DNA of 64,000 nucleotides from a bacterium (GCA_030647415.1 JAUSKB010000011.1:21858-85857), one strand, 5' to 3'; shown: positions 2,669 to 63,016, counted from the first letter of the stretch. Numbers and translations are program-made. The notes: generated by a model from the letters alone, not told the origin.

Positions 2669-3823
2669 CTACAGAAGTCCATTTAGTTTCGCGCGGGTTT
2701 TCGGTCCCACAAAACCATAGCCGGAATCGCCCGGCTTCGCGATATTGTATTTCTCCTGGAAGGCCTTCACCGCGCTTTCAGTCAAGGCGCCGAAATATCC
2801 GGTCGCGGACACATTCAAGAGACCTTCGTTCTTCAGTATGTTCTGAAGCGCTGTCACGTCTGCTCCCTTCGAGCCTGCGCCTAATGGCCGGTTGAAAGCC
2901 GTGCGGGGAGCGGCGGCGGGAGACGATGGCGTCGTGGCGGGCGCCGGAGCAGGCACGGAGATGGGCGCGGACGGAATAATGTTTTCCGCAATCTTCGTCC
3001 GGGTAAGGGGTCCGAGATACCCGGTGGCCGGAAGTCCAATGCTCGCTTGGTATCGCGCCAGAGCCGCCCGGGTAGCATTCCCGAATAGATTTGTTTCGTG
3101 ACCTGGGGACCCCGCGCCGCCTGCCGCCACCGGAAAACCGTTGCTGTTTAAGAATGTTTGAAGTTGCCGCACATCTTCACCGTGCGAATTAAACTGTAAA
3201 TTGCGTGAAAAAGACGCTCCACCGCCCGCCGCGGTTGAAGGAGCCGCTCCTTGTTGCGTACCTGCTTTGTTTTGTAGGACCTGCAATTGAGCGAGCAACG
3301 CGCTCAATTGGTTTTGCGCCGAAGTGCTGGTACTGGCGCTGGTACTGGCGGGGGTGGCAACGGAAGTTGTGGTAGCGGCAGTCGGCGCTACATACGTACC
3401 GCCGCCTCCCCCGCCGCCGCTGACATTGACCGTAGCTGCTGATGAAACCGTGATGGTATAGGCAAAGCTTGCCACCGTCGAAGAAGCGCTATTTGCATAG
3501 CAGGCAATCGCTTTAATGGTCGCCGATGAGCCCACCGAGATTGCGCTGGAGTATGTCGTGCCGGTTGAAGGGCAGGCCGGCGCGCTGCCGTCGGTAGTGT
3601 ACCGGATGCTGGTCTCGCCGGTGGCGTCCAAGGTAACGCTCTGGGCAGAGGTGTAACTGCCCGCCGCGGGACTCGCGGTCGGCGCCGCCACTACCGTCCC
3701 CTCCACGGGACAATTCACGCCGGTGCACAGCGAACCGGTTATTTCAGACGCAAGAACAGGAAGCGCCGCAAGGAAACCAACCGCACATATGAGTAATGTT
3801 TTTGAGTTCACTATCCTATTCAT
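2669..3823 (-). CDS. Secreted peptidoglycan-binding protein. It has a signal peptide, a CHB_HEX_C/Fn3-like domain (IRYTTDGSAP), a coiled-coil (LSALLAQLQVLQ), and two PG_binding_1 domains.
   Basis: Two copies of the motif G.DV..LQ..L...G......G.FG..T..A...FQ (GEDVRQLQTFLNSNGF...ATRAALARYQ and GADVTALQNILKNEGL...TESAVKAFQ). The N-terminus is hydrophobic. Confidence 0.75.
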   Translation of the reverse strand: MNRIVNSKTLLICAVGFLAALPVLASEITGSLCTGVNCPVEGTVVAAPTASPAAGSYTSAQSVTLDATGETSIRYTTDGSAPACPSTGTTYSSAISVGSSATIKAIACYANSASSTVASFAYTITVSSAATVNVSGGGGGGGTYVAPTAATTTSVATPASTSASTSTSAQNQLSALLAQLQVLQNKAGTQQGAAPSTAAGGGASFSRNLQFNSHGEDVRQLQTFLNSNGFPVAAGGAGSPGHETNLFGNATRAALARYQASIGLPATGYLGPLTRTKIAENIIPSAPISVPAPAPATTPSSPAAAPRTAFNRPLGAGSKGADVTALQNILKNEGLLNVSATGYFGALTESAVKAFQEKYNIAKPGDSGYGFVGPKTRAKLNGLL

Positions 3824-3833
3824 TTTTAATTAC

Positions 3834-6800
3834 CTATTGCGACTGTATCCCGTAGCTCGTGGAATACGATCCGCCCGCCGAACCGGTCGGCACTTTCGCT
3901 TCCACCACTATCTGAATCTGGCGGCCGGCGGTATTCGCGTCCAAGTCAGCGTTCAATGTCATCGCGCTGGGATACGTATTTGCCGCGGTGATGGTGATTG
4001 GCGAGCTTGAGGTCGCGTTTGAGGACTGCGCCGAGTAGAAGCGGATGTTGCTTGCCGCGGCAATGGTGTTTGAACCGCTTATCCAATCCGCGAATTTCAT
4101 CGTCGTGCTCGTCTCGCCCGTCGGCACCGTCACGCTGAACACCCAGCTCCACCCGCTTGCATACGTGTCGTTGGCGGTGGCAAAGGTGCTTGAGGCGGAA
4201 ATTCCCGTTACCGCGAGCGTGACCGACTCCGCAGTCGTGGTGAATTCCTGACTGGCTTTGGTGGTGTACGCGGTTACAGTGTTACCCGCGGCATCTTTGG
4301 CTCCCGTTACCCACAAATAGTATTGCGTGCTGTTCGCCAGATTCGCTATAGGGTCAATCGTCACTATGGTGCGCGCGTCATTCATAGAGTAGGAGGCGCT
4401 AACGACACTGTCACCACTGTACAAGCGAAGCTGGACTGTGTTGGTATTCACCGTATTCGCATCCATTGCTTCACTGAAAGTTACTGTCGGTGAGGCGGTA
4501 ATCGCGGTTGTCGTCGCGCCGTCTACGGGCGACTGTGCGGAGACGGTCGGCGCGGTGGTGTCAGTTGCCGCCGTGGTAAATGCGCTGGTTGAACTCGCGC
4601 CGTAGGCAGTCGCGAGCGCATTCCCCGTAGCGTCCTGAACACTGGTTGAAGCGTAGAGATAGTACGAGGTCGTTGCGGTTAGTGAGGAAAGCGGGGCAAT
4701 AATCACTCGCTTGCCGCCGTTCCCCAGGGAAACCGTAGCGGTCACCACGGAATCATCCGAGGACTTGCGAAGCTGCGCCGTATTGGAATTGACCGAAGAA
4801 ACCTTGAGTTCTTCGGAAAATTCAATGTACGGCTGTATTGTGGCGACAACGCTGGTAGAAGCATTTGTCGGATATTGGCTAGAGACGGTCGGCGCGGTGG
4901 TATCGGACCCTATTGTCGTGAATGTCTGGTCACCAGATGTTCCTGTATTACCGGATGCGTCGCTTGAAAGTACGCGGAAGTGGTAGAGGGTGCTTGCAAT
5001 AAGCCCGGTGAGACCCCGCGAATGAGACGTGGTTGACGTAGTCGATACTGTCGAAGATCCGTAGCTTGAGGTCGTGCCATACTGGATTGTAGATGAAGCG
5101 CTCGTTTCGCTCGTCGTCCATGCTATTGACACGCTTGAGCTGGTAATAGAGCTTGCCTGGATGTTTGAGATAGTGGGGGCGGTGGTATCGGCGGAGGCGG
5201 ATACGGTTACGCTTGTTGAGCTGGTAATAGTTGCGTCCGCATAATCACGAGCAGTAATTGTTACGGTTTGCGCCGTGTTGAGTGTTACGCCACTCGTGAA
5301 TGTCTTGGTCCCGGCATCACCGGATACGAACGGATAGGACTCCGGGCTAAGATCGTACGGTGCGGTTGCGGACGCCGAGATAAATACCACACCCGTGTAC
5401 ACGGTTCCATTTACGCCACTCGCGGTATTTCCACTAGTATCTTTTGCCGTAACCGTAAGATTAAACGCTGTTCCCGCCGTCGGCGTCGCCGTTGATGGGG
5501 TGACGGTGTAGGTGGATGCGGCGGCGTGTCGTACCGTCACACTCGTGGAAGTTCCTGTCAGGGTTGCGTCATTCACCGTAATGGCGCCTAACACTTCGGC
5601 TCTCGTCAGCGTAAAGGTTGCAAGAGAAGCCACGCCGCTTGAGAATGCGGCTTGAACGGTTGAACTCGCGGGAATGGTGGGGGCGGTCCCATTCGGCGAT
5701 GTGTGCGTGCTTAACGCAGTACTGCTTGCATCCAGGAAATTATATGTCTTCCCGGTCGCGCTATATCCAGTGTCGGTAATATCACCCGCATTTGCCGCGG
5801 TAAGCGTCATGGTATCCGCCGAACCAGCCGTCGGCGTAGATGTCGCGAGCGTAACCAAGAATTTGGTGGCCACCACATTCGAGACCGTGGAACTCGCGGT
5901 GCTTGACGCGCTATTAAAGTTATTTGTTCCTGCCGCGTCATCGGTAAAGCTCAAGACGAAGGCCTGTTGGTCGGCGGTTGCGGTATACAGGATCGTGGAG
6001 AAGGTGGAGACGCCGTTCGAGGCGGTGGAGGTCGTCGTGCCAGAGAGAGTACCAGCGCCGCTATAGACCGCGGCAGTAACCACATCGGTGTTGGCCAAAG
6101 CATCAAGCGTATTCTGCGCGTCAACGAATCGTATCACCGGCTGGGTCATCGAGACGCCGGAAATGGAGGAGGTCGGATTGGTGTAGACGATAACCTTGGT
6201 GGCGACAACGTCCGAGGTGACGGCGTTTGCATTGACAGTTGCGAGATTTCCCTCCGCGCCACCCGCAACATCATCCGCAGTAAGGGTGAATGCTTCCTGG
6301 TCAGCGGAGGCGGTGTAAATCAAGTCATCGCTAGTAGCAAAATTAGCGACACCGGCGACGGCGGCCTCTGTGGCATTCGCCAGGGTGCCGGTAGACGCTT
6401 CCGTCAGAGTAATCACCTCAACGAAATCAGTGTCAGTCGCGCCAGCTGCGTTTCTGGCTGTTACCACTGGCTGGGTCACGAGGGCGATGCCGGAGGTGGC
6501 GGAGGCCGGTTGCGTGGTAAAGGCAAGCACGGTGGCAATAACGTTTGACAATGTTGAACTCGCGGTGCTTGATGCGCTATTGAAGTTATTCGTGCCTGCC
6601 GCGTCATCAGCAAAACGTAGGACAAAGGCGCTTTGGTCAGTAGTTGAGGAGTAGATGAGGCCGGAGAAGGTGGCGACGCCGTTCGAGGCAGATGAGGTGG
6701 TGTTGCCCGACACCGTTCCTCCACCGCTTAGAACTTCTGCCGTCACCACATCAGCGTTCGCGAACGTGTCAAGCGCGTCAGCCGCGTTCACAAACCTGAT

Positions 6801-8720
6801 GACGGGCTGGGTCATGGAGACGCCGGAAACCGTGGAGGTCGGATTGGTGTAGACAATGGTCTTGGTGGCGATAACGTTTGACAATGTTGAACTCGCGGTG
6901 CTTGATGCGCTATTGAAGTTGTTCGTGCCTGCCACGTCATCGGTAAAGCTCAAGACGAAGGCGCTTTGGTCAGTAGTTGAGGAGTAGATAAGGCCGGAGA
7001 AGGTGGAGACGCCGTTCGAGGCGGTAGAGGTCGTCGTGCCAGAGAGAGTACCAGCGCCGCTATAGACCGCGGCCGTAACCACGTCAGTGTTGACCGCCGC
7101 ATCCAGCGTGTTCTGCGCGTTAACGAATCGAATGACGGGCTGGGTCATGGAGACGCCGGAAACCGTGGAGGTCGGATTGGTGAAGACGATAACCTTGGTG
7201 GCGACAACGTCCGAGGTGAGGGCGTTTGCATTGACAGCCGCAAGGTCGCCTTCGGCGCCACCAGCAACATCATCCGCAGCAAGGGTAAACGCTTCCTGGT
7301 CAACCGAAGCGGTGTACGCAAGACCGGAGAAAGTGGCGACACCAGAAACCGCGCTTGTGGTCGCATTCGCCAGGGTGCCGGTAGACGCTTCCGTCAGAGT
7401 AATCACCTCAACGAAATCAGTGTCAGTCGCGCCAGCTGCGTTTCTGGCTGTTACCACTGGCTGGGTGACCAACGCGATGCCGGAGGTGGCGGAGGCCGGT
7501 TGCGTGGTAAAGGCAAGCACGGTGGCAACAACGTTTGACAATGTTGAACTCGCGTCCACCGGGGCGCCATTAAAGTTATTCGTGCCTGCCGCGTCATCGG
7601 TGAAACGCAGGACAAAGGCGCTTTGGTCGGTTGATGAGGAGTAAAGAAGACCAGAGAAGGTGGAGACGCCGTTCGAGGCGGTAGAGGTCGTCGCGCCGGA
7701 CAATGATCCACTGCCGCTCTGGACTGAAACGGTTACCACGTCAGTGTTGACCGCGGCATCCAGCGTGTTCTGGGCGTCAACGAATCGAATGACGGGCTGG
7801 GTCATAGAGATGCCGGAAACGGTGGAGGTCGGATTAGTGAAGACGATAACCTTGGTGGCGACAACGTTCGAGGTGACGGCGTTGGCGGTAGTTGTAGCAA
7901 GGTTCGTACCCACACCAGCATCATCATCAGCGGTCAAGGTGAATGCCTCTTGGTCAACCGAGGCGGTGTAAATCAAGCTAGCGCCAGTAGCAAAATTAGC
8001 AACACCGGCGACGGCGGCCTCTGTGGCATTCGCCAGCGTGCCGGTAGCGGTTTCAGTCAGAGTAATAAGTTCTGTGAAATTGGTGTCAGTGTTTCCATAT
8101 GTGTCACGCGCCGTTACGACTGGTTGAGTCACCAGTGCGATGCCGGAGGTGGCAGAGGCCGGTTGGGTGGTGAAAACAATTTGCGTAGCAGTCCCCGGCG
8201 TAAGCGTCACGCCCGCAATTCCGCTCTGGGCAGTTTCACCTGATGCGTTACTTGTAATTGTGAAAGTTCCTGTCGCTCCAGAAGTTGTCGCGTTCGTGAT
8301 ACCAGTCGTTATTCGAAAAGTCGTCCCTGTCCCCGTGCCGAGATCATAACCACTCGTTAAGGTCGCTTTAATGGTGCTACTCGCCGAACTACCGATAACA
8401 CTATCTATGCTACGGTCCACACCGTCCACGCTGATAAAGCCGGAGGTTACACACCCGCTATTACAAATGGCTGAAGCCCCAAGCGATCCATTTGTGATTG
8501 CGTAGCCAGCGGGAAACGTAACGGTAAGAGTCGTCGCGGTTGATGTTGTATTTGTATCAAACGAAACATTGTAATCAGCGTTCGCGGCGCCTACCACCAA
8601 ATCAGCCGCAGCAGTCCCAGCCACCGAACCACCGCTCACTGTCGCGTGAGCATTCGGAACCAAAACAAAACCACCGATTAAAACGAACGCGACTACTAAA
8701 AGAAAACTAGATTTTTTCAT
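3834..8720 (-). CDS. Giant (about 1628 aa) Ser/Thr/Ala-rich secreted surface protein, S-layer-like. It carries tandem Ig-like repeats, Fn3 and Big-like domains.
   Basis: The track ORF is 3834..8843. The internal ATG at 8720 gives MKKSSFLLVVAFVLIGGFVLVPNAHA, a signal peptide. Two repeat types of about 100 aa alternate (FTTQPASATSGIALVTQPVVTAR... and KVIVFTNPTSTVSGISMTQPVIRFV...). The C-terminal domains include an Fn3 (SSVSIAWTTSE...LYHFRVLSSDASGN) and a Big-like domain. Confidence 0.8.
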   Translation of the reverse strand: MKKSSFLLVVAFVLIGGFVLVPNAHATVSGGSVAGTAAADLVVGAANADYNVSFDTNTTSTATTLTVTFPAGYAITNGSLGASAICNSGCVTSGFISVDGVDRSIDSVIGSSASSTIKATLTSGYDLGTGTGTTFRITTGITNATTSGATGTFTITSNASGETAQSGIAGVTLTPGTATQIVFTTQPASATSGIALVTQPVVTARDTYGNTDTNFTELITLTETATGTLANATEAAVAGVANFATGASLIYTASVDQEAFTLTADDDAGVGTNLATTTANAVTSNVVATKVIVFTNPTSTVSGISMTQPVIRFVDAQNTLDAAVNTDVVTVSVQSGSGSLSGATTSTASNGVSTFSGLLYSSSTDQSAFVLRFTDDAAGTNNFNGAPVDASSTLSNVVATVLAFTTQPASATSGIALVTQPVVTARNAAGATDTDFVEVITLTEASTGTLANATTSAVSGVATFSGLAYTASVDQEAFTLAADDVAGGAEGDLAAVNANALTSDVVATKVIVFTNPTSTVSGVSMTQPVIRFVNAQNTLDAAVNTDVVTAAVYSGAGTLSGTTTSTASNGVSTFSGLIYSSTTDQSAFVLSFTDDVAGTNNFNSASSTASSTLSNVIATKTIVYTNPTSTVSGVSMTQPVIRFVNAADALDTFANADVVTAEVLSGGGTVSGNTTSSASNGVATFSGLIYSSTTDQSAFVLRFADDAAGTNNFNSASSTASSTLSNVIATVLAFTTQPASATSGIALVTQPVVTARNAAGATDTDFVEVITLTEASTGTLANATEAAVAGVANFATSDDLIYTASADQEAFTLTADDVAGGAEGNLATVNANAVTSDVVATKVIVYTNPTSSISGVSMTQPVIRFVDAQNTLDALANTDVVTAAVYSGAGTLSGTTTSTASNGVSTFSTILYTATADQQAFVLSFTDDAAGTNNFNSASSTASSTVSNVVATKFLVTLATSTPTAGSADTMTLTAANAGDITDTGYSATGKTYNFLDASSTALSTHTSPNGTAPTIPASSTVQAAFSSGVASLATFTLTRAEVLGAITVNDATLTGTSTSVTVRHAAASTYTVTPSTATPTAGTAFNLTVTAKDTSGNTASGVNGTVYTGVVFISASATAPYDLSPESYPFVSGDAGTKTFTSGVTLNTAQTVTITARDYADATITSSTSVTVSASADTTAPTISNIQASSITSSSVSIAWTTSETSASSTIQYGTTSSYGSSTVSTTSTTSHSRGLTGLIASTLYHFRVLSSDASGNTGTSGDQTFTTIGSDTTAPTVSSQYPTNASTSVVATIQPYIEFSEELKVSSVNSNTAQLRKSSDDSVVTATVSLGNGGKRVIIAPLSSLTATTSYYLYASTSVQDATGNALATAYGASSTSAFTTAATDTTAPTVSAQSPVDGATTTAITASPTVTFSEAMDANTVNTNTVQLRLYSGDSVVSASYSMNDARTIVTIDPIANLANSTQYYLWVTGAKDAAGNTVTAYTTKASQEFTTTAESVTLAVTGISASSTFATANDTYASGWSWVFSVTVPTGETSTTMKFADWISGSNTIAAASNIRFYSAQSSNATSSSPITITAANTYPSAMTLNADLDANTAGRQIQIVVEAKVPTGSAGGSYSTSYGIQSQ
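5850..8200. repeat. Near-identical intragenic tandem DNA repeats inside the giant surface-protein gene, with a period of about 1 kb built from alternating 660-bp and 340-bp sub-units.
   Basis: A 60-mer (aacgaatcgaatgacgggctgggtcatggagacgccggaaaccgtggaggtcggattggtg) recurs at about 6130, 6790, 7130 and 7790. The shadow ORFs 6370..6654 and 7087..7644 encode near-identical peptides. Confidence 0.6.
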
Positions 8721-9319: not shown

Positions 9320-10669
9320 ATGTCTCTTCCGAAGAAATTCGCATTGTTCCTCGGCGACATCCTGCTTCTCTACGTCGCGCTTGCGGGCGCCCTCCTTATC
9401 CGCTACGGCGTGGGCGAGTTCGGCGCCTCGTTTGACACCCATGTGGGACCCTTCTCGAAACTCTTCCTCCTCTGGCTCATCGTCCTCTACATCGCTGACC
9501 TGTACCGCCCCGCCGCGCTCCGGAGCCGCGCGGCCATCTGGCGGTCGCTCATCCGCGTCGTTGCGATCGCCGTCGTCGCCTCCACCGTCGTCTTCTATTT
9601 GTTCGGGAGTGAGTTCTCGCTCACGCCAAAAACGAACCTCCTCATCTTCGGCGCCCTCTTCCTCGCCCTTGACGCGCTGTGGCGAACGACGGTGCGCTCC
9701 CGCTTCGCGGCTGGCGCAGCAAACCTCATCGTCGTCGGCGCCTCGCCCTTGACTGCGGCAACCATCGCGCACCTCCGGGAGAACCCGCAGACCGGCTACC
9801 GCGTGGTCGACTGGCTCGAACGGCCGGATGCCGCGGCGCTTCAAACCCTGCCCGCGCGGATTGCCGAGCACCGGGCGGGCATGGTTGTCTTCGAACGGCA
9901 GACGCTCCTGAACCCGGATGCGCTCGCCGCCGCCTACCGCCTCCTGCCCCGCGAGGTCGCGCTCTTGACCTCGACTGATATCTACGAGACGACCTTTGAG
10001 CGCGTGCCGCTCGCAGAAATTGACGAGACCTGGTTCATCCGGAACATCACCACCCGTCGTCGCTTCTACGACGCGCTGAAGCGCGCCCTCGACCTCGCGG
10101 CATCCGCCATCCTGCTCGTCGTTCTCTCGCCCCTCTTCCTCCTCATCGCCCTCATGGTCGGCGCGACCTCGCGGGGCCCGGTCATCTTCCGGCAATCACG
10201 AATTGGGAAGCTTGGCCGGCCGTTCACACTTTATAAGTTCCGCATCATGGTCAAAAACCACGACGGCTCGCCCGTCACACTCACGAACGACCCGCGGTTC
10301 ACCGGCATCGGAAAATTCCTCAACTTTACCCACCTAAACGAGCTCCCGCAGCTCTGGAACGTCCTCCGCGGCGACCTGTCCTTGACCGGCCCCCGGCCGG
10401 AGAGCGCCGAGCTCGTCGCCCAGTACGCATCCCTCCCCTACTACGACATCCGCCACGTGGTGAAGCCGGGCGTGACCGGCTGGGCGCAGATCAACTTCAA
10501 GCCGAGCACCTCGCGCGAGGAGGCCTTCGAGAAACTCTCCTACGACATCTACTACATCGCCCACCGCTCGCTCCTCCTCGACCTCCTCATCATTTTCCGA
10601 ACCGTGAAACACCTCGTTGCCCCCGTCCGCCAGAACGCGCCCGCCGACCTTGGCGGACAAACCCGCTAA
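9320..10669 (+). CDS. Polyprenyl-phosphate sugar phosphotransferase (WbaP/WcaJ/EpsL bacterial sugar transferase family), the initiating enzyme.
   Basis: An N-terminal TM region and a C-terminal catalytic domain with ...KFRIM...DELPQLWNVLRGDLSLTGPRPE...GWAQIN. ATG at 9320. Confidence 0.9.
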   Translation: MSLPKKFALFLGDILLLYVALAGALLIRYGVGEFGASFDTHVGPFSKLFLLWLIVLYIADLYRPAALRSRAAIWRSLIRVVAIAVVASTVVFYLFGSEFSLTPKTNLLIFGALFLALDALWRTTVRSRFAAGAANLIVVGASPLTAATIAHLRENPQTGYRVVDWLERPDAAALQTLPARIAEHRAGMVVFERQTLLNPDALAAAYRLLPREVALLTSTDIYETTFERVPLAEIDETWFIRNITTRRRFYDALKRALDLAASAILLVVLSPLFLLIALMVGATSRGPVIFRQSRIGKLGRPFTLYKFRIMVKNHDGSPVTLTNDPRFTGIGKFLNFTHLNELPQLWNVLRGDLSLTGPRPESAELVAQYASLPYYDIRHVVKPGVTGWAQINFKPSTSREEAFEKLSYDIYYIAHRSLLLDLLIIFRTVKHLVAPVRQNAPADLGGQTR

Positions 10670-10673
10670 CCCC

Positions 10674-12950: not shown

Positions 12951-12965
12951 GCCTCTTTTAATTTT
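12933..12965. terminator. Bidirectional rho-independent terminator between convergent genes.
   Basis: A 23-bp perfect hairpin GAGGCTCACGTgACGTGAGCCTC followed by TTTTAATTTT. It overlaps the stop of 12396..12950. Confidence 0.7.
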
Positions 12966-15410: not shown

Positions 15411-15450
15411 GGAAATTTATTAAGAAACCGATGTGTAATGGTTTCTGTGT

Positions 15451-16523: not shown

Positions 16524-16532
16524 AAACAAAAA

Positions 16533-49441: not shown

Positions 49442-49460
49442 TGATGAAAATTCAGGGATG

Positions 49461-50381: not shown

Positions 50382-50439
50382 GCTCTTGATGTTATTATAC
50401 CGCAAACTGCCGAATACCCCGACTGAAACATAGGCATAA

Positions 50440-54728: not shown

Positions 54729-56123
54729 TTACGCGGCCTGTTTCAGTGGGTTTCCTCCTTTTTCTTTTATCTCTTTTCTTTTTTCATCCTGAATCCTAGT
54801 CACGTACGCCCCGCCGAGTGCGAGGAAAAAGAAGAGGTTGTATGAGATGGGGAGCACATCAAAGAGAACAACGCCCTGCACCAAATAGGCGACGGCAAGG
54901 CCGATGAGGATACTCTCTTCCGTGAGTAATCGCCTGGTAAGCTCAATCTTCCGTGTGCGGAAAAACTGCCAAAAGAACACCACGAACATGCCGAGGTAGC
55001 TTACGAGCCCGAGCGCGCCGGTTTCAACAAGGTAGTCGAAAATGATGCTATGCGCGCGGTCGAACCAGGCGCCAAACGGATTGCCGGGCACGTAGTAGGC
55101 TGTGTCGAAGTGCCGGTCAAAGACCTGAATGTAGTTCTCTGGTCCCCAACCGAGGACCGGACGGTCAAGAAACCCGCGGTAGGCAACACCCCACATGATG
55201 CCTCGCGTCTGGAAGGTCTCGGCGCCGATCGAGATATCAAAGATGCGCGAGATGGGAAGGGATTGGATGAACTGCGTTTGGCGGAACTGCACCGCCACGA
55301 CGAGTAGCACGATAAGAAGCGCGCCACCGGCAAGCAACCGCTTCCGCCATGCCCGGTGGAACCATGCAAAGTAGGCGATGGCGACCGCCGCCGCGACGAC
55401 GAGCGCCACGAGCGCACCGCGCGTCTTTGAGAAGAAGAGAACGGCGATAAAACCCGCGCCGAGAAGCCCGACAAAAAAACTTCCGAGCGAAAGTAGCTTC
55501 CGTTCCCGGTACCGAGCGTGCAACAGGTACGCTAAATATCCCAGAAAGAATATACAGAGCGCCCCGACATACGCGGGATTGCCGATGGAACCCTGGAACC
55601 GGAAACCTGAACCTGATTCCGCAAGCGTTGCGCCCACAAATCCCTGGTACCCATACGCCGCAAAAAAACCGTACACCACCATAAGCACCCCGCCCGCGAC
55701 GACCCACCGGAGCATGCGGCGCCAGTCTTCCGTGCTCGCGAGGAGTGAAGATAAAAGAAAAAAGAAAAGGGACAGATGTAAAACTTGCAGACCGCCCTCG
55801 CCACGCTCGAAGTTGGACCAGAAGGATGCGGCGGGGTCGACCCCAAAAAGTCCTGCAAGAATAAAGAAAAATGAAAAAAGAATAACGGAAATCCCGATAG
55901 GAGAAACGAGTGTCGCCCGGAGACGGGCGAGGTATGGCTTTGCGGCTTCGTGGTTCGCGAGCACGCCGATACAAAAAAGCCCGAGCGAGATTGCCACCGA
56001 CCCCCGGAACCAGGCGTACTTCCCCACGATAAACGGGAAGAGTGTCGAGGGTACCACAATAGCGACGAAGAGCGCCGAGAGGCGGAGGAAGAAAGCGGAG
56101 AGTTTAAACCAACTCATATTCAT
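54729..56123 (-). CDS. O-antigen ligase / Wzy_C-family polytopic membrane protein, a candidate O-oligosaccharyltransferase or polymerase.
   Basis: About 10 TM helices and a Wzy_C-like loop (FSKTRGALVALVVA...). A paralog lies immediately upstream. Confidence 0.7.
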   Translation of the reverse strand: MNMSWFKLSAFFLRLSALFVAIVVPSTLFPFIVGKYAWFRGSVAISLGLFCIGVLANHEAAKPYLARLRATLVSPIGISVILFSFFFILAGLFGVDPAASFWSNFERGEGGLQVLHLSLFFFLLSSLLASTEDWRRMLRWVVAGGVLMVVYGFFAAYGYQGFVGATLAESGSGFRFQGSIGNPAYVGALCIFFLGYLAYLLHARYRERKLLSLGSFFVGLLGAGFIAVLFFSKTRGALVALVVAAAVAIAYFAWFHRAWRKRLLAGGALLIVLLVVAVQFRQTQFIQSLPISRIFDISIGAETFQTRGIMWGVAYRGFLDRPVLGWGPENYIQVFDRHFDTAYYVPGNPFGAWFDRAHSIIFDYLVETGALGLVSYLGMFVVFFWQFFRTRKIELTRRLLTEESILIGLAVAYLVQGVVLFDVLPISYNLFFFLALGGAYVTRIQDEKRKEIKEKGGNPLKQAA

Positions 56124-56302: not shown

Positions 56303-58813
56303 TTAGAGTTTTCTGATTATCTCCCAATTCCCCTTCTCGGCGAGGTCGATCAACACATCCATGTCGTCCGCGATACTCGGGAACGTGCCCTTCATGAATT
56401 TTGCGAGTGCCGCGAAATGCTCTTGGTCCTTTTGGTCAGCATAACGCTTGAGTGCCAGCGTGTAGGTCTCCTGGTCGAGCGCGACAGGCAATGCGCCGCG
56501 CATGCTCCGGTCGATGAGTAATATAAGTTGGTCGTTCTCGCCCAAGCTCGCATAGAGCATGCCGAGTGTCCGAAAATCGGTGTTCATGAGCGTGTTGAGA
56601 CGGGGATTGAGGCGTTCCACCTCGGCGAGCTCCCGCTTCGCCTCATCCTTTTGCCCGCCCGCGTCGAGCATGAGCCCGAGGTGGAAGTGGGCGCGCGCGA
56701 CACGGGTATCAAGCGCGACCCCGCGACGGGCGATGGTAATCGACTCGTCCACCCTCCCCTGTCCGGCGAGATTGAATGCAAGTAGGTAGAAAAGCTCTTG
56801 GCGGGTCGGCGAGAGCTCGAGCGCCTTCCGCAGGTACAGCTCCGCCTTCGCGTAGTACGACTCATCGTCGCGCGCCATCGCGTGGAGCATCGTCGCGTAC
56901 CGGATGTAGTAGCGCACATCGTAGACCGGCTCCCGATCAATCATCTCCTTGGCCCCGGCGAGCAGGAGGTCCCCGACCGCCTTGAACTTCGGGTTCTGCC
57001 GATACGGGTCGTACAGGAAGTACTGATCCTGGTAGATGTTGTCGATACCGACGCCTCGAATATCCTTTTGCGCATAGGTTGTCGGGTACATGCCATCCCG
57101 GAGCCGCGCCGTTACCTTCTTGATATCACCGAGGCCCGGCGACTCCTTGTACGCTCGCGCCTGCGCGTAGGGCAGGGCATTCACGAAGTAGATGCCGCCG
57201 ATGGCGGCAACAAACAACAAACAACAAACAACAAACAACGCATACCGACGGAGCGGGGATGCCGGCGCGGCAGAAACTGACGATAGCGATGCAGGCTCGC
57301 ACCCGCCTGCCCACTTCGCCGGAGCTTCAGCGAGGCGAGCTGGTGAGGTGGGGCGTGCAGCCCACGCAACAAACACCGCAAACGTCAGGTATGAGACTAC
57401 TTGGTCGAAGAGGACGAGATTTTGGACGACATACGAGACGAGGAAGCCGAGGAGAACCGCTCGGACCGCGCCGGCATTCCGCCGCCAGATCAATGCGCCG
57501 AGCGCGACGAGGAGCGAGACGTATGCCACCGTGCCAACGACCCCCTGCGTGACGAGGAGGTCAAACACCTTGCTGTGCGCGCGGTCGAGCCATGTCTCGC
57601 CGTAGTACGCGAATGCGGGGTCGTAATGGCGCTCATACGCGGTGATGTAGTGTTCTGGTCCCCACCCGAGTACCGGCTTTTCGAGGAATGCCTTCCAGCT
57701 GACTCGCCAAGTAATAAGCCGCGTCTCCGTTGAGGCGTCCGACAGGGACTCCTCCGCGGTTACCGCGAGGCGGTTCAATCCGGGAATCGACTGCCACAGC
57801 GGCGCCGTCCGCGTTGTCCAAAAGACGCCCGCGAATACGAAAAGTGCAGCAAGAAGCATGCCCGCGCGAATTCGCCGTCGCTGAACCGAAATATCACCAC
57901 GGTCGCCCCTCTGGAAAAGAGTGAGCACGAGCGCCACGACACCCCCCACCGCAAGGCCGAGCATCGCGCCGCGGGTGCCGGTGAGGAACACAGTGAGCGC
58001 GCCGAGGCCGATCGTCGCGAACGCAAACCACCGCCAGGCGCGCACCAAAAAGAAAAGGGGCAGAGGCGAGATGAGGCGAGACCTTAAAGGAATTCCAAGG
58101 TCTCGCCTCGGGACTGATCTCGCCTCTGTCTCTTTTCTTTTATCTTTTCCCCACACCGACATCCACGCGAACACCATTACAAAGAGGGCGTACGTCGCGA
58201 GGAAGGCGGGGTTCCCGATGAACGATTCGGCGCGATCCTGCGCATGGCGGGCAAATGGAACCCAGGTGATACCGAAGTGCTGGAAAAGACCGTAGAGAAA
58301 AACGACGAACCCGACAAGGACCGTGAGCTTGAGATACCGGCTCCAGTCGCGCGGTCGGAAAAGGGCAAGGAGGAGGCCGCCGAACGTAATGACGTGCATG
58401 ATGCCGATAACCCCCTCCCCTCGCTCGATGTCGCCCCAGAAGGCGCGATAGGGGTCGAGAGAAAACGCCATCGAGATGACAAGGGAAAAAAGAAAAAGGA
58501 TAAGGGAAATACCAAGGGGACTCTTAATCGCTTTCCACGCCTCGGCTCGGGACGGAAGCCCGATGAATCCCGAGGCGAGACGAGGCGAGACCTTAAGGGA
58601 ATTCCAAGGTCTCGCCTCGGGGTTGGTCTCGCCTCGCACCAACGTCCACGCGACAGAAAGCGCGACACAGGCGAGCGCGAGCTCAACGAGCGTCCGGAAG
58701 AGGGCAAGCTTCGGGAAGGCGTAGGGGAAAAAGACGCTCGAATCGATGACAAGCGGCACGAGCACGGTCGCGGTGAGAAACCATCGAGCGAGCGTGAGGA
58801 GACGGCGGGGCAT
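56303..58813 (-). CDS. O-antigen ligase / Wzy_C-family membrane protein fused to C-terminal TPR repeats. It carries two in-frame family B repeat insertions.
   Basis: ATG at 58813 (MPRRLLTLARWFLTATVLV). The Wzy_C region is LTGTRGAMLGLAVGG. The C-terminal 300 aa are TPR-like (YYAKAELYLRKALELSP...). The track ORF extends to 59074 through repeat sequence. Confidence 0.7.
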   Translation of the reverse strand: MPRRLLTLARWFLTATVLVPLVIDSSVFFPYAFPKLALFRTLVELALACVALSVAWTLVRGETNPEARPWNSLKVSPRLASGFIGLPSRAEAWKAIKSPLGISLILFLFSLVISMAFSLDPYRAFWGDIERGEGVIGIMHVITFGGLLLALFRPRDWSRYLKLTVLVGFVVFLYGLFQHFGITWVPFARHAQDRAESFIGNPAFLATYALFVMVFAWMSVWGKDKRKETEARSVPRRDLGIPLRSRLISPLPLFFLVRAWRWFAFATIGLGALTVFLTGTRGAMLGLAVGGVVALVLTLFQRGDRGDISVQRRRIRAGMLLAALFVFAGVFWTTRTAPLWQSIPGLNRLAVTAEESLSDASTETRLITWRVSWKAFLEKPVLGWGPEHYITAYERHYDPAFAYYGETWLDRAHSKVFDLLVTQGVVGTVAYVSLLVALGALIWRRNAGAVRAVLLGFLVSYVVQNLVLFDQVVSYLTFAVFVAWAARPTSPARLAEAPAKWAGGCEPASLSSVSAAPASPLRRYALFVVCCLLFVAAIGGIYFVNALPYAQARAYKESPGLGDIKKVTARLRDGMYPTTYAQKDIRGVGIDNIYQDQYFLYDPYRQNPKFKAVGDLLLAGAKEMIDREPVYDVRYYIRYATMLHAMARDDESYYAKAELYLRKALELSPTRQELFYLLAFNLAGQGRVDESITIARRGVALDTRVARAHFHLGLMLDAGGQKDEAKRELAEVERLNPRLNTLMNTDFRTLGMLYASLGENDQLILLIDRSMRGALPVALDQETYTLALKRYADQKDQEHFAALAKFMKGTFPSIADDMDVLIDLAEKGNWEIIRKL

Positions 58814-58978: not shown

Positions 58979-59222
58979 CCCGCGACACACCCCGAAGCAC
59001 GTTCGATATATTATTCTCCAAAATACCTGATTTATTCCTCGGCAGCGCCTTCGGCTTACGTATTCAAAACACAAACTATACCCTGAACGTGCAACGGGGT
59101 TCCCGTGGCTGAAACCTCGCCCCGCCAGCCGGCGGGGCTCGGGAAGCCACCGGAAAACTCACCCCCCTCCGACCTAGGTCGGAGGGGGGATGCCGATGCA
59201 GTCAGTACCGGAAGCAGAAGAA

Positions 59223-62200
59223 CTAGTTGTTCTTCGTCGAGAACGAGTCGGACGGCAGCGTCTTCACAAACACGCTGTTCGCCCAGTCCGAAGTCGACTC
59301 CGTGTGACCCACCGCCGAGTTGTCCGACCAGATGAAGGACGGCGCACCGTCGTTGTTCGCGCCGCCGAGGCTGGTTTCAACAGCCGCGGCAGTCGTCGCC
59401 GCAACGAGCGTCGTCTCCGTCTGGTTGAGCTTGACCGACGCGTTCGCGCCGCCCGACCCTGACGCAACAAGGTCAGAGAAGGTGAGCGCAACTTCGTAGG
59501 TCTTCGATGAACCAGCCGCGATGTCCTCCGCGGTGTTCAGGATGAGCGTCACGAACCCGGACGTAGCAGGCACGATCGCCGACGTACTTGAAGTCGTCGC
59601 CGACGTACCCGAGAAGGCCGAGGCGATGTTCAGGTTCGAAGAACCGATCGGCTTCAACGTGACGTTACCCGACGTGCCCGGAACGGCGTTCACCGCCGTC
59701 ATGGTCGCACCGCTCATCGTGACCGCGAGCTGAACCTTCTTCCACGACACCTGCTCGGCAGAATCTGCCGCAACGGTGAAGCGGATGATGGGGGTCAGGG
59801 TCGCGCCGAGGGTCGCACCAGCCGAAGCGACCGTGATGGTCGGCTTCGTCTTGTACGCGACCTTCTGGAAGCCCGTCGCCGCCGTGACGGTCGTGTCAAG
59901 CGCCGATGCGCCCTGCGCCTCGAAGTTCGCGGCCATAACGCTCGCGTAGACCGAGGCACCCGAGTCCGCACCGTTCGAGAAGGAGTTCATGACTCCCTTC
60001 ACGACGAGCGTCTTCGAGGTGTCCTTCGGGATGTTCCACCCGAGGGTTTCAATCACCGCCACACCCGAGCTGTCACCCGAGGCCTGGACGGTGTATCCCG
60101 CCGCCGAGCCGACAGCCGCGCCGTTCGTGTCGTAGAGCTTCACGACCGGCACCTCGTCCGTAGACGCGCCCGAGGTTGCAGTCGCCGAACTCGTGGGAAC
60201 CACGAGGAGCTGGAGCTTGTTCACGGTCATGTCCTCGTTCGTCGCCGTGAAGCGGAACTTCCCGATGACGTTCTCGCGACCCATGATGACGATGCCCGCT
60301 TCGGACTCGGTGTCCGACGGAGCCGTCACCACCGTCACGTCGCCCACGTTGGCGACCGAGACCAGGACCGTACCACCCGAGTTCGCCGCGGTTCCCGTGA
60401 GGGAAACGGCGTTCCCCTCCACGTCGTACGCGGAGATGTTCGCAGACGAAACTGCGGCGATGTAGAACTTGTACACATCACCCACGGTGTCCGACGCCGA
60501 GACATTCCCACGGAGCGTGAGAATTTTCGTCACGCCTGACTCGATCGTGTAGTTCAACGAGTCAAACGTCGCGTCGATGTTCGTGGTGTCGAGCGACTTG
60601 AAGGACGAAATCCGGTTCGTGCCGTCGTAGAGCGCAAGGCTCTGGACGTCACCCGAGTTGAGCGTCCCACTGGTCGCCGAACCCGTCACCTTGATGGTAT
60701 CGATGCGCACCTTGCCCGCGACAGCCCGGAAGCTGAAGCCGGCGAGCGCGACATCGCTCTTGCCTTTCACGTAGGTCTGCGACGTTGGCGTCGAAGACAA
60801 CTGCGTGTCGAGTGAGAGCGCCTTCACCGTCAACGTGTTCCCTGAAATCGTGCTGTTCGGCACGATAACCGAGGTCGCGACGTAGGTGTTGTTATCCAGG
60901 TTCCGAACATCATTCGACTGGAAGGCGAGGAGGTGTACCCGCACGGTCCCGTTCGAGCTGTTCGTGGAGTCCACGTCAGCCGTAACCTTGAACCGCTTGG
61001 ATGTCCCGGCCGAGAGGTTGATGACGTCGGTGAAGGTGACGTTCGTGGACGATGCCGTCGTGACGTTCACCGCCGAGGTAATCAGCGAGTTCCCTGCCGT
61101 GTCCCACACCTTGAAGTCGTTGTAGAGCGCGATCGTACCCGTCGAGGAGACGTTGAACCGGAGGTTCCGGATTTCAACGTTGTTCTGCGAGGCAATCGTG
61201 AAGTCGTAGAGCATCGCGTCCTGCTGGCGGAGGGTGACGTCGCCCGTCACCGGACCGTTGAAGGTGATGGTGAGCTCGCCGCCCGCGACCGTCAGCGTGT
61301 CCGCCTCGCCAGTCGTGTCGATACCCGTGATGTCAGGAAGCACGGGGTAGCCGTAGGTCTTCCCGATCGCGTAGACATCCGACGCGCTGTCGAAGTAAAA
61401 CACGATGGTGTCCGCAGACCGGGTCGTACCCGAGATGTCCGCGTATACCTCAAAGGTGCGCTGCTGACCCTTCTCGAGGAGGAACGGCGTCGTGAAGTTA
61501 AACACGGCGAGGTCCTTCGCGCCGATCGAGGCCGCCGTCGCAACGACGTTCCCGCCCTGCTTCAACATGAAGTTAGACAGGTTTTCGTTCGCGATGGAAC
61601 CACCTTCGGTAATAGCGATACGCTGGACCACGATGTCCTCCGTCGAGCTCGCCTGGAGCATAAACTCCGCGAGCTTCGCACCCTGCTGACCCACCTTAGG
61701 GTTCGAGGGCGCAGCGCCAGAGGTCACGGCAACGCCGCCAACCACCTGGCCGCCGATGGACATCTCATTCCCCATGAGCACTCCGGTCGGGTTTGGCGTC
61801 CCCGCCGCGGAAACGAGCGAGAAGTAGTTCCGGTTCGAAGCAGTCGCGGAACTTGAGATATCCGCCACGAGCGAGAGGGTCTTCACGCCTGCAACCGCAA
61901 TGTTCAGGTTCAGGAAGGTGACCTCGTGCGTCGTGGAGTTGATGCTCCGGCCGTTGGTGAGACGGGTCATACCATCGTAGAGGTAGATGCCCGCCGAGCC
62001 GAAGTCGGATGTCGAACCGATGCCGAGCCGCTTGAAGGTGAGCGAGGAGAGCGTGCCGGTCCCCGAAACGTTGAATTTGAGGAAGACGACGCCCGTCGCA
62101 CCCTTCGGAATCGACTGTGCAATCGGGTTGTCAGCCGCGAGGCTGACGCTAAAGCCGGACGGAGCCGGGCCGGGGCCTGGGCCTGGACCTGGACCGGGGC

Positions 62201-62621
62201 CTGGTGTTACCACACTATTCATTGCTGCGCGGCTTATCGGACCGAAGTATCCCACCCAGGGCGAGATGTTCGCGTCCTTCTGCCATGCGGCGACCGCAGC
62301 TTTCGTCATCGGGCCGAAGAAGCCCGTTGGCGCGCTGATCTTCAGATACCCCTTGCTGATAAGCACGTTCTGCAACGCAGTGACGTCAGCTCCCTTGCTG
62401 CCGAGTGTGAGGTTCACGGCAAACTGGTATGACGACGCGGCGGGAGTTCCGCCCTGGTTCCCGAGCTGTGCCTGCAAAGCGTTAATCTGAGCCAGCAATG
62501 CTGCAATCTGCGCCTGGAGGTCCGCATTTGTCTGTGCGAACGCGGGCGCGACACCGGAGAGGGAAATGGCCGTAACGACCGCAATCCCGACCGATGCAAT
62601 CTTCGTTGAAAGCTTACTCAT
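59223..62621 (-). CDS. Giant secreted surface protein (about 1130 aa). It has a signal peptide, a coiled-coil, a PG_binding_1 anchor, a (PG)n linker and multiple Ig-like beta-sandwich repeats.
   Basis: ATG at 62621 gives MSKLSTKIASVGIAVVTAISLSGVAPAFA. Then QAQIAALLAQINALQAQL, then GSKGADVTALQNVLISKGY...AAVAAWQ, then PGPGPGPGPGPGP. Thr/Ser/Ala-rich. Confidence 0.75.
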   Translation of the reverse strand: MSKLSTKIASVGIAVVTAISLSGVAPAFAQTNADLQAQIAALLAQINALQAQLGNQGGTPAASSYQFAVNLTLGSKGADVTALQNVLISKGYLKISAPTGFFGPMTKAAVAAWQKDANISPWVGYFGPISRAAMNSVVTPGPGPGPGPGPGPAPSGFSVSLAADNPIAQSIPKGATGVVFLKFNVSGTGTLSSLTFKRLGIGSTSDFGSAGIYLYDGMTRLTNGRSINSTTHEVTFLNLNIAVAGVKTLSLVADISSSATASNRNYFSLVSAAGTPNPTGVLMGNEMSIGGQVVGGVAVTSGAAPSNPKVGQQGAKLAEFMLQASSTEDIVVQRIAITEGGSIANENLSNFMLKQGGNVVATAASIGAKDLAVFNFTTPFLLEKGQQRTFEVYADISGTTRSADTIVFYFDSASDVYAIGKTYGYPVLPDITGIDTTGEADTLTVAGGELTITFNGPVTGDVTLRQQDAMLYDFTIASQNNVEIRNLRFNVSSTGTIALYNDFKVWDTAGNSLITSAVNVTTASSTNVTFTDVINLSAGTSKRFKVTADVDSTNSSNGTVRVHLLAFQSNDVRNLDNNTYVATSVIVPNSTISGNTLTVKALSLDTQLSSTPTSQTYVKGKSDVALAGFSFRAVAGKVRIDTIKVTGSATSGTLNSGDVQSLALYDGTNRISSFKSLDTTNIDATFDSLNYTIESGVTKILTLRGNVSASDTVGDVYKFYIAAVSSANISAYDVEGNAVSLTGTAANSGGTVLVSVANVGDVTVVTAPSDTESEAGIVIMGRENVIGKFRFTATNEDMTVNKLQLLVVPTSSATATSGASTDEVPVVKLYDTNGAAVGSAAGYTVQASGDSSGVAVIETLGWNIPKDTSKTLVVKGVMNSFSNGADSGASVYASVMAANFEAQGASALDTTVTAATGFQKVAYKTKPTITVASAGATLGATLTPIIRFTVAADSAEQVSWKKVQLAVTMSGATMTAVNAVPGTSGNVTLKPIGSSNLNIASAFSGTSATTSSTSAIVPATSGFVTLILNTAEDIAAGSSKTYEVALTFSDLVASGSGGANASVKLNQTETTLVAATTAAAVETSLGGANNDGAPSFIWSDNSAVGHTESTSDWANSVFVKTLPSDSFSTKNN

Positions 62622-63016
62622 TATGTTGTTTGTTTTAGTTATTTTTGACTCACTCCTTTTTTTCCCATCTGGCAGAGTCGTCCAGACGGAATATATCGAC
62701 CTTTTTTCAGGAATCACCGCACGCGCTCGTCGTCGCAACTTCCCTGGAGTGAGGATCGGGAGTGCTGGAGCGCACACGATGGGCAGTATCAAAAGAAAAA
62801 GCCTCGCTTCGGGTGCTCCGAACGAGGCGAACAATGCCGCATGACGGCAAAACCCTGCCCCATCTGGCATCGGGGCATCGGGTCGCCGAAAAACGAGCTT
62901 CGCCTCACACGAAGCAGATGATACCTACCGCTCAAAAGTTCAGTCGTTTACAGTATTTTCAGCGGGTATCACTAGAGAAAACGACCGAATGACCGCATTG
63001 TTACGGAGTAATCGCT

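Follow-up and report, generated by a model that had tools for sequence, protein, structure and literature searches.

We analyzed a 64,000-nucleotide stretch of bacterial DNA (GCA_030647415.1 JAUSKB010000011.1:21858-85857; hereafter the window, with positions counted from its first letter), near the right end of which a gene for a large peptidoglycan-binding surface protein (the big protein) stands directly upstream of a gene for a membrane enzyme that joins a Wzy_C core to a 13th transmembrane helix (TM13) and a tetratricopeptide repeat (TPR) domain. We propose, with a probability of about 0.55, that this locus serves to O-glycosylate the neighboring surface protein en bloc, in the manner of the S-layer glycosylation (slg) loci, in a member of the Paceibacteria and thus of the candidate phyla radiation (CPR), or Patescibacteria. 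Gene content, enzyme family, conservation of catalytic residues, fold, predicted topology, homology between fused and split forms, and gene pairing were observed or computed, and from these we infer (i) that the big protein is the glycan acceptor, (ii) that the TPR domain is a dock for it, and (iii) that the protein forms an S-layer.

CPR bacteria, which account for a large share of bacterial diversity, lead lives attached to other cells and have envelopes that are still nearly uncharacterized. Our literature search found no paper on protein O-glycosylation or on O-antigen-ligase-family enzymes in CPR/Patescibacteria; one preprint states, giving no detail, that S-layer proteins are predicted in Patescibacteria. 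The conserved pair described here offers one concrete candidate glycoprotein together with one concrete enzyme, and the envelope question thereby becomes testable.

The surface protein-enzyme gene pair

Open reading frames (ORFs) were listed, and 56 window ORFs were scanned against Pfam (E <= 0.01), 10 of these also against NCBIfam (Table 1). On the minus strand at the right end of the window, the order of transcription is a polytopic membrane-protein gene, the big gene, the Wzy_C-TPR gene, a second Wzy_C gene, a gene for a 210-residue protein, an ATPase gene, and an AsnB-like gene. The core of this order, namely a ~1140-residue PG_binding_1 protein, Wzy_C-TPR, Wzy_C, and a ~205-residue protein, recurs at homologues of 56%, 42%, 41%, and 37% identity; in two relatives (L001 and L003), the AsnB-like gene comes next after the core and is followed by variable GT4 (family 4 glycosyltransferase) and methyltransferase genes.

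The pairing was counted from both sides by tblastn on fetched loci. Relatives of the enzyme were sought in a genome set with one genome per GTDB species, where they occur in at least 568 species-representative genomes and from which 79 loci were kept; an independent metagenome search took the big protein as its starting point. For the genome set, loci with at least 3.6 kb of upstream sequence were counted, and a big orthologue had to have the same orientation as the enzyme gene and to end less than 4 kb ahead of it. By this measure, the orthologue lies directly upstream in 25 of the 30 loci with an enzyme of 29% or higher identity to that of the window, and in 3 of the 32 whose Wzy_C-TPR protein falls below 29%. 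For the metagenomes, a big-protein locus was counted when 1.5 kb or more of sequence was available downstream, and a Wzy_C(-TPR) gene had to start within 3 kb on the same strand, as it does in 49 of 57 loci, mostly across a gap of 100-400 bp. The identities of the two proteins covary (r 0.75 over 69 adjacent pairs), the big protein being the more conserved partner in 68 of the 69 (means of 49.7% versus 33.6%), and the pairing is kept in relatives whose big protein is 34-77% identical to that of the window. The downstream glycan genes differ among genomes, and the constant part of the locus is the surface protein with its enzyme(s), not the sugar pathway.

Two more distant loci are instructive as to the upstream slot. 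In L008, whose enzyme is 29% identical, the upstream gene encodes a 1273-residue protein that is still 27% identical to the big protein over 700 residues. In L004, a groundwater Parcubacteria contig whose enzyme is 30% identical, the slot holds two ~380-residue type-IV-pilin-like (N_methyl) genes; this replacement of the big protein (L004 6943-9918, and likewise in L005) is accompanied by a PMT_2 (GT-C) gene downstream.

The two tandem Wzy_C paralogues beside the big protein, one of them with a TPR extension, had been recognized in an initial annotation made from the sequence alone, and the Pfam scores bear this out (81.8 and 62.1 bits versus a cutoff of 31.7 for PF04932). For the TPR-bearing enzyme, an ATG start at 58813 agrees with the N-termini of its homologues, and a TTG at 59074 belongs to an over-extended ORF. 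Across 42 homologues and both paralogue families, R281 (in a TRGA motif), R348, R365, GWG383-385, W408, D410, and H413 (enzyme numbering) are invariant; R281, which sits where TM8 reaches the external face, makes up an Arg/Arg/His triad with R365 and H413. A search of the Protein Data Bank (PDB) with the single sequence of the fused enzyme yielded only TPR matches, and the same search with the second paralogue found nothing. A 12-sequence profile reached WaaL of Cupriavidus metallidurans (7TPG, E 2.9e-10), with R281/R365/H413 aligned to R191/R265/H313; WaaL is also the top structural match of the enzyme, which has the WaaL-type fold of 12 transmembrane helices. The corresponding residues of Escherichia coli WaaL (R215/R288/H338) are functionally important and common to PglL (PMC3643930). 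NCBIfam names neither Wzy_C protein; the only match of the second paralogue, to a putative O-glycosylation ligase associated with the exosortase A system, reached 40.5 bits versus a cutoff of 188 and is not used as evidence here.

A combination of helices in the AlphaFold2 (AF2) model, hydropathy, and the distribution of Lys and Arg predicts a cytoplasmic N-terminus, 12 helices, an external catalytic loop (334-414), a cytoplasmic Lys/Arg-rich linker (487-519, low pLDDT), TM13, and an external TPR domain. The TPR domain would therefore lie on the same side of the membrane as the active site. The initial annotation had held that a cytoplasmic TPR domain would speak against protein glycosylation; this objection does not apply to the predicted topology, since it puts the domain outside the cell.

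The enzyme gene is also marked by a 67-nt palindromic element (core GGCGAGACCTTAAGGGAATTCCAAGGTCTCGCC) present in three copies (58061-58127, 58570-58636, and 58912-58978; 0 expected by chance). Two copies lie in frame inside the gene, and the third lies just 5' of the start codon. The in-frame copies insert ~22-30 residues each into two loops, which are predicted to be cytoplasmic and have low pLDDT, and homologues mostly do without them: insert 1 is found, besides the window, only in the 68%-identical protein P0002, and insert 2 has no counterpart outside the window. These elements resemble the in-frame palindromic elements of Rickettsia.

The second Wzy_C protein is 30% identical to the first, retains the invariant triad (R235/R307/H358), and has no TPR domain of its own. 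Its orthologues come after Wzy_C-TPR in L001, L002, L003, L006, L010, L016, L020, L036, and others. Directly after it lies a gene that the initial annotation had overlooked, encoding a 210-residue protein with one N-terminal helix behind an RR motif, for which an N-in/C-out orientation is thus predicted. When a profile of 15 orthologues of this protein was compared by hhalign with the TM13 and TPR region of the fused enzyme, the two matched with a probability of 98.2% (E 4.6e-14), the membrane anchor being part of the 172 aligned columns. Further, in L002 a single protein of 645 residues unites the second Wzy_C with the small TPR protein, and its residues 454-645 share 44% identity with the 210-residue protein of the window. 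By sequence homology, then, the 210-residue protein is the split-off TM13-TPR module and a partner of the second Wzy_C protein. Given the hhalign match and the L002 fusion, both paralogues would work with a transmembrane-TPR module, fused in one and split in the other. The second Wzy_C protein itself is a candidate repeat-unit polymerase or second transferase.

An AsnB-like gene comes after the small TPR gene in L001, L003, L010, L015, L016, L017, L020, and L036, and is missing at the core of L002 and L006. Its product probably amidates a uronic acid of the glycan. In the window, the two genes are separated by an AAA_14/DUF4143 ATPase gene (52587-53900) in a patch of 44% GC; because the small TPR and AsnB-like genes adjoin in L001 and L003, this gene is a local insertion.

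The big protein (~112 kDa when mature) has 489 homologues; among the matches listed, most are 1120-1180 residues long and all the named ones come from Patescibacteria. It consists, in order, of a signal peptide, a coiled coil (one long helix), a helical PG_binding_1 domain, a Pro-Gly linker (PGPGPGPGPGPGP) that is disordered in the AF2 model, and a string of β-sandwiches. The C-terminal ~950 residues are modelled as tandem Ig-like domains (pLDDT 85, pTM 0.49; all-β past residue 158). The protein has a pI of 4.9 and no Cys, its relatives have pI values of 4.6-5.1, and four of the six examined have zero Cys. In bulk properties (pI, lack of Cys, mass, and wall-binding domain), the protein is S-layer-like. 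The initial annotation had described it as anchored by PG_binding_1 and extremely rich in Ser and Thr; the anchor was found, and the Ser+Thr content is 23%, which is ordinary for a surface protein. In cultured Paceibacteria, signal-peptide proteins with peptidoglycan-binding domains are among the products of the most highly expressed genes (PMC10936435).

Around the big gene, a strong hairpin lies 34 nt past the stop codon, and its role as a terminator is only suggestive; promoter-like and terminator-like sites were not enriched over shuffles in the scanned region. Upstream, an AT-rich inverted repeat (63005-63105; 47-nt arms, 81% complementary, made up of repeated AATAATGCGAAT-like motifs) separates the big gene from the membrane-protein gene and could have a regulatory or promoter function. 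The product of the latter gene shares 34% identity with the protein encoded ahead of the L001 big orthologue, and the gene possibly belongs to the conserved neighborhood.

As to the host, the initial annotation had guessed a CPR-like organism, and this proved correct: homologues come almost entirely from Patescibacteria/Paceibacteria metagenome-assembled genomes (MAGs), a relationship that places the organism among the CPR bacteria of the Paceibacteria type. One NCBI MAG protein, entered as 'O-antigen ligase family protein', has the same sequence as the Wzy_C-TPR protein, for which nearly all named relatives belong to Patescibacteria, Parcubacteria, or Paceibacterota, with Jorgensenbacteria among them. 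The 79 kept loci, too, are almost all from Patescibacteria, including Jorgensen-, Harrison-, Kaiser-, Colwell-, Wildermuth-, Wolfe-, Sungii-, Portnoy-, Azam-, and Uhrbacteria. Several loci (L019, L022, L026, and L083) are labelled Hydrogenophilales, Nanoarchaeota, Prolixibacteraceae, Gammaproteobacteria, or Saccharibacteria and bear a Wzy_C-TPR protein typical of Paceibacteria, L022 and L026 with a big-protein gene upstream as well; many other records that bear the enzyme are titled 'uncultured Candidatus Saccharibacteria'. Such off-lineage labels are probably mis-binned contigs or generic labels.

Mechanism and competing explanations

The initial annotation had proposed an slg-like locus with Wzy_C-TPR glycosylation of its surface proteins. 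The two-way pairing, the predicted external TPR domain, the CPR lineage, and an slg-like gene set all accord with this idea, and glycosylation is the activity to which we take them to point. Further points in its favor are the WaaL-type catalytic residues, the pilin-like genes in the acceptor slot of L004, the S-layer-like bulk properties of the big protein with the hairpin behind its gene, and the finding of no lipid A/core, Wzz, or LCP gene in the window. In the mechanism that we envisage, the Bac_transf phosphoglycosyl transferase would prime undecaprenyl phosphate to give a primer linked to undecaprenyl pyrophosphate (Und-PP), on which GT4 and GT2 enzymes would assemble a methylated glycan at the cytoplasmic face, probably containing heptose, 6-deoxy sugars, and a uronamide. 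Wzx would flip the lipid-linked glycan, and at the outer face the WaaL-fold Wzy_C-TM13-TPR enzyme would release it from Und-PP and join it to side-chain hydroxyl groups of the ~112-kDa protein, using its Arg/Arg/His site, with the extracellular TPR domain serving as the protein-docking module. The second Wzy_C protein and its split partner would act in an earlier polymerization of repeat units or, alternatively, in the transfer of a second glycan.

A broader version of this proposal, which we put forward tentatively as possible, is that the ~1130-residue protein is the S-layer (major envelope) glycoprotein of much of the class Paceibacteria, with a dedicated, co-inherited, TPR-bearing Wzy_C O-oligosaccharyltransferase (O-OTase) and a hypervariable downstream glycan cassette that gives each lineage its own sugar coat. 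If so, CPR bacteria would have a conserved S-layer glycoprotein system that bears on host recognition by epibionts and on phage evasion. An O-OTase with a TPR dock would, moreover, widen the set of enzymes for bioconjugation.

Several observations weigh against the glycosylation proposal. Big-protein homologues at or below 39% identity often have no enzyme downstream, and all of the exceptions to the metagenome pairing fall in this range; on the enzyme side, Wzy_C-TPR genes below 29% identity mostly stand without an obvious surface-protein neighbor. In none of the features of sequence or structure that were tested does an O-OTase stand apart from Wzy polymerases and glycopolymer ligases; WaaL and PglL have the Arg/Arg/His triad in common (PMC3643930). 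In the Pfam scan, neither paralogue matched the PglL_A motif (PF15864) at E <= 0.01, and for this reason we rejected the PglL family proper for both Wzy_C proteins. With the big protein, Foldseek returned just generic Ig-like arrays (PrgB, macroglobulins, integrins) at very low TM-scores, with the Haloferax S-layer protein 7PTP at rank 34, and so unspecific a list of model matches neither backs nor opposes an S-layer. A highly expressed peptidoglycan-binding protein of cultured Paceibacteria (PMC10936435) has 693 residues, versus ~1130 here, a length at which orthology is not established. Given the unspecific fold search and this lack of an established orthologue, the S-layer label stays an inference.

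Finally, the same gene adjacency would be expected if the glycan were a wall ligand or matrix of the protein, not attached to it. The two Wzy_C paralogues might be the polymerase and/or ligase of a secondary-cell-wall-like glycopolymer on peptidoglycan or lipid, by which the big protein is anchored or organized. A conserved position next to a wall-bound protein fits both explanations, and adjacency alone cannot separate them. The glycopolymer has a precedent in WpaA and WpaB of Bacillus anthracis, proposed to polymerize and ligate the secondary cell-wall polysaccharide, where depletion of either protein disturbs S-layer assembly, although that activity is itself without experimental proof (PMC6030368). 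It would also account for two tandem Wzy_C paralogues and for the UDP-GlcNAc 2-epimerase of the window, ManNAc being typical of wall-polymer units. Conversely, the big protein has a PG_binding_1 domain and not an SLH domain, and the window has no CsaB-like, TagO-type, or LCP gene. The TM13 and extracellular TPR module, fused or split, matches published protein O-OTases, and the relative L004 has pilin-like genes in the acceptor slot. On balance, we regard a wall glycopolymer, the main rival of our proposal, as rather unlikely; were it the true product, the locus would still pinpoint the polymerase/ligase pair of a CPR cell-wall glycopolymer.

We consider it improbable that the two paralogues are simply Wzy polymerases in a Wzx/Wzy pathway of the capsule or exopolysaccharide type, with the TPR domain as a scaffold or chain-length module and the surface protein as part of a general envelope neighborhood. 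The Pfam Wzy_C family does include Wzy polymerases, and one phosphoglycosyl transferase, two Wzx, and two Wzy_C proteins would suit two Wzx/Wzy lines, all members of this pathway (the transferase, Wzx, and a Wzy-family protein) being present in the window. No Wzz was found in the window, which makes a built-in regulator conceivable, and distant Wzy_C-TPR genes lie in glycan clusters with no surface-protein neighbor. Ordinary polymerases nevertheless fit poorly, because the pairing with one orthologous protein (86% and 83% of loci in the two counts) is far tighter than a loose neighborhood while the glycan genes vary; in addition, the nearest solved relative is the ligase WaaL, and L004 and L008 have a single TPR-fused enzyme beside a putative acceptor. 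As for a WaaL-type ligase that would put O-antigen on the lipid A-core of a Gram-negative host, WaaL is indeed the best structural and profile match, and the source annotation reads 'O-antigen ligase family protein', but every informative named relative is from Patescibacteria, the 64-kb window has no lipid A/core gene, and WaaL lacks the 13th helix and the TPR domain. Lipid A synthesis and an outer membrane are not known from the Patescibacteria lineage, and its type IV secretion system is reported to be of the monoderm type. A conventional lipopolysaccharide-ligase role is therefore unlikely in a CPR organism, and, with the architecture also considered, we rejected it as very improbable. Glycosylation of the big protein by the Wzy_C-TPR enzyme thus remains the explanation that we prefer.

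The glycan cluster and the flanking genes

Table 1. Features of the window (positions from its first letter; +/-, strand).
Feature	Position	Strand	Basis and remarks
Secreted protein, 384 aa	2669..3823	-	CHB_HEX_C_1/Fn3_assoc, two PG_binding_1 (Pfam)
Giant repetitive Thr/Ser/Ala-rich surface protein, 1628 aa, pI 4.05	3834..8720	-	Big_5 x2, fn3
Initiating polyprenyl-phosphate glycosylphosphotransferase	9320..10669	+	Bac_transf E 1.1e-58; TIGR03025 320.7, above cutoff
Wzx-type flippase 1	10617..12185	+	Polysacc_synt E 2.2e-39
Variable glycan-assembly region	12958..50666		UDP-GlcNAc 2-epimerase, 6 GT4, 3 GT2, 5 methyltransferases, heptose block, dehydrogenases
Six GT4 genes	14166..15410, 22637..23812, 26104..27309, 34366..35571, 47172..48383, 48380..49441		Pfam
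Three GT2 genes	20457..21599, 27291..28322, 36199..37149		Pfam
Five methyltransferases	23809..24564, 28340..28972, 35578..36192, 41427..42809, 49461..50666		Pfam
Wzx-type flippase 2	24599..26062	-	Polysacc_synt E 1.1e-35
Heptose block, four contiguous genes	30138..33123		NTP_transferase, HAD, SIS, GHMP kinase (Pfam)
GDP-mannose 4,6-dehydratase	39457..40416		Pfam E 9e-112; NCBIfam gmd 359.9, below 415 cutoff
AsnB-like glutamine amidotransferase	50440..52323	-	Asn_synthase + GATase_7; TIGR01536 414 bits, above cutoff
Small protein, 210 aa, predicted N-in single-pass TM + extracytoplasmic TPR-like	54050..54682	-	weak TPR_19
Second Wzy_C paralogue, 464 aa, no TPR of its own	54729..56123	-	Wzy_C E 6.5e-17
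Wzy_C-TM13-TPR enzyme, 836 aa, proposed O-OTase	56303..58813	-	Wzy_C
TM13 (~520-545) and ~290-aa all-helical TPR-like domain	56306..57256	-	AF2, hydropathy, PDB TPR matches
Predicted extracytoplasmic catalytic loop, residues 334-414	57572..57814	-	invariant R348, R365, GWG383-385, D410, H413
Terminator-like hairpin	59162..59189	-	stem of 12 bp (10 of them G-C), then a T-rich tail; 34 nt past big-gene stop
Big surface protein, 1132 aa, ~112 kDa mature	59223..62621	-	PG_binding_1 E 9.5e-9
Polytopic membrane protein, 257 aa	63105..63878	-	no Pfam family; ~6 hydrophobic segments

The ~43-kb glycan cluster (9320-52323) described in the initial annotation is present in the Pfam and NCBIfam scans, and most of its claimed contents were recovered: the initiating transferase scored above the TIGR03025 cutoff, both Wzx flippases matched Polysacc_synt, GT4 and GT2 transferases were found as six and three genes, and the five methyltransferases were all detected by Pfam. 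The claimed GDP-6-deoxyhexose pathway is represented by a GDP-mannose 4,6-dehydratase matched in Pfam, with gmd below its NCBIfam cutoff, and the cluster has four further epimerase/reductases of the short-chain dehydrogenase/reductase (SDR) type, in addition to genes for a UDP-GlcNAc 2-epimerase and for members of the UDP-glucose/GDP-mannose dehydrogenase family. The GDP-heptose pathway stood in part, in that the four contiguous genes have the right folds, while an equivalog-level match was not reached for either HddA (the best NCBIfam match of the heptose kinase, 153 bits versus a cutoff of 600) or HddC (74 versus 300); a GmhA/HddA/GmhB/HddC route is thus supported only at the domain level. 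This route was reportedly first worked out for the S-layer glycan of Aneurinibacillus thermoaerophilus. The Pfam scan of the 56 ORFs found no Wzz, LCP, ABC-transporter, or lipid A/core gene anywhere in the 64-kb window, nor a CsaB-like pyruvyl transferase or a TagO-type gene; Wzz/GNVR had no match in these ORFs, and the unassigned ones do not have the expected shape of two transmembrane helices with a large loop.

The cluster is not purely of glycan function, as HTH-Fic, DUF559, NUDIX, small kinase, NT5C, HD, Inositol_P, and AAA_14/DUF4143 ATPase genes intervene. In bins of 2 kb, GC content runs at 56-62% from 10 to 24 kb and then mostly at 45-53% up to 50 kb; it rises to 60% in the bin at 50-52 kb, falls to 44% in the next (52-54 kb), and comes to 55-61% between 54 and 64 kb. 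These non-glycan insertions, together with GC swings of 45% to 62%, make the cluster a mosaic, as O-antigen-type loci usually are, and the GC pattern fits horizontal exchange of the central glycan cassette. Scans of the window for tRNA genes and Rfam families found nothing.

Several parts of the cluster merit separate mention. The HTH-Fic gene (18858..19847, +) and the DUF559 endonuclease-like gene (20012..20407) embedded in it look like a toxin-antitoxin pair or a mobile remnant. A block of nucleotide-metabolism-type genes (43710-47179), comprising NUDIX, AAA_18/33 kinase, NT5C 5'-nucleotidase, HD hydrolase, and inositol monophosphatase family (Inositol_P) members, might be part of a nucleotide-sugar salvage route. 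One ORF (21603..22535) matches just the central domain of the UDP-glucose/GDP-mannose dehydrogenase family, of which a full-length paralogue lies at 38183..39565, and may have arisen from such a gene by truncation or decay. A family of 43-nt G/C hairpins (CCCCTCTTATG..AAGAGGGG) is present in four copies (19944-19986, 20388-20430, 20689-20731, and 21205-21247), two of which lie inside the first GT2 ORF of Table 1; the Pfam match of this ORF spans just residues 8-98, and the gene may be disrupted or insertion-bearing.

To the left of the cluster lies a second giant protein, for which, as for the big protein, the start predicted in the initial annotation agrees with a sensible start codon. Its reported richness in Ser and Thr was upheld (32% Ser+Thr, with internal repeat families D1/D2), and the PG_binding_1 anchor ascribed to it was found instead in the secreted protein encoded by the next gene downstream. 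In the ~150 related loci, each spanning +/-8-10 kb around the core, there is no conserved homologue of this protein. The sole sizeable one (39% identity over 362 residues; L162 11179-12225) is encoded immediately downstream of a big-protein homologue, and the locus in question has no Wzy_C gene. That the giant protein is part of the glycosylation system, as had been suggested, was not borne out, there being neither a tie to the module nor the claimed anchor; a role as an extra glycan acceptor is conceivable, and no evidence links its gene to the module.

Comparison with known glycosylation systems

The slg loci of Gram-positive bacteria combine genes for an initiating phosphoglycosyl transferase and for glycosyltransferases with nucleotide-sugar genes and a means of export, and the window has all of these, with Wzx for export. 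The predicted S-layer O-OTases WsaB of Geobacillus stearothermophilus and WsfB of Paenibacillus alvei contain Wzy_C; a C-terminal TPR is found in WsfB and in PglL, whereas WsaB has none and the neighboring 168-residue ORF WsaA has one (PMC2943079). In the same cluster maps, wsfA is an asparagine-synthase homologue, and the S-layer genes sgsE and spaA are among the ORFs (PMC2943079). Slg loci thus have Wzy_C with its TPR either fused or as a neighboring small ORF, and the window has both forms. The comparison of gene content invited by the initial annotation accordingly held, in that the fused and split Wzy_C-TPR arrangements and the Asn-synthase homologue match published slg loci, the likeness to WsfB and WsaB being drawn from published descriptions of those enzymes (PMC2943079).

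The slg locus of P. alvei CCM 2051T (WsfB, WsfA, WsfP, and SpaA) resembles the window in Wzy_C with TPR, the Asn-synthase homologue, the initiating phosphoglycosyl transferase, and the S-layer or surface gene. It differs in that its host is a member of the Firmicutes and not of the CPR, whereas the window has two Wzy_C paralogues and a PG_binding_1-anchored acceptor candidate; in addition, P. alvei glycosylates tyrosine, while the acceptor residues of the window are hydroxyl side chains in our proposal only. In G. stearothermophilus NRS 2004/3a (WsaA, WsaB, and sgsE), the TPR is split off, as in the second Wzy_C and 210-residue protein of the window. The small TPR gene, however, lies upstream of Wzy_C in Geobacillus and downstream in the window, and Geobacillus exports its glycan by an ABC transporter (Wzm/Wzt), where the window has Wzx flippases.

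The enzymes PglL, PglS, and TfpO (PilO) of Gram-negative bacteria share the Wzy_C core with Arg/Arg/His. In PglS, 13 helices are joined to a large periplasmic domain at the C-terminus (PMC12800693), an extracytoplasmic arrangement like that predicted for the window enzyme (TM13 and a 290-residue TPR domain). Among 31 PglL-like O-OTase candidates, 21 have pglL adjoining the acceptor gene in the same orientation, and simple similarity cannot tell WaaL from PglL (PMC3643930). The window analogue of this co-orientation is the 49 of 57 and 25 of 30 loci counted above, in which the neighbor would be the acceptor. In L004, pilin-like genes stand in this position, much as pilin genes adjoin those 21 PglL-like candidates. 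The differences are that PglL_A (PF15864) was not detected in the window, that the C-terminus is a long TPR array and not Wzy_C_2, and that the acceptor of the PglL, PglS, and TfpO enzymes is a pilin, whereas the candidate here is a 112-kDa protein of Ig-like domains.

Of the remaining relatives, WaaL of C. metallidurans (7TPG/7TPJ) has catalytic residues R191/R265/H313 that are conserved in the window enzyme at 17% identity, but it has no 13th helix or TPR domain, and its lipid A-core acceptor is not expected in CPR bacteria. WpaA and WpaB of B. anthracis are alike in being two paralogous membrane proteins of the Wzy/WaaL clan that are tied to S-layer assembly; they differ in belonging to PF13425 and in their proposed role in a secondary cell-wall polysaccharide, and no TPR module is mentioned for them (PMC6030368). 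In summary, the mechanism that we propose is already known in kind from slg or PglL-like systems, and what is new in this locus is the phylum, the conserved family of the acceptor candidate, its PG_binding_1 anchor, and the pairing of a fused with a split enzyme.

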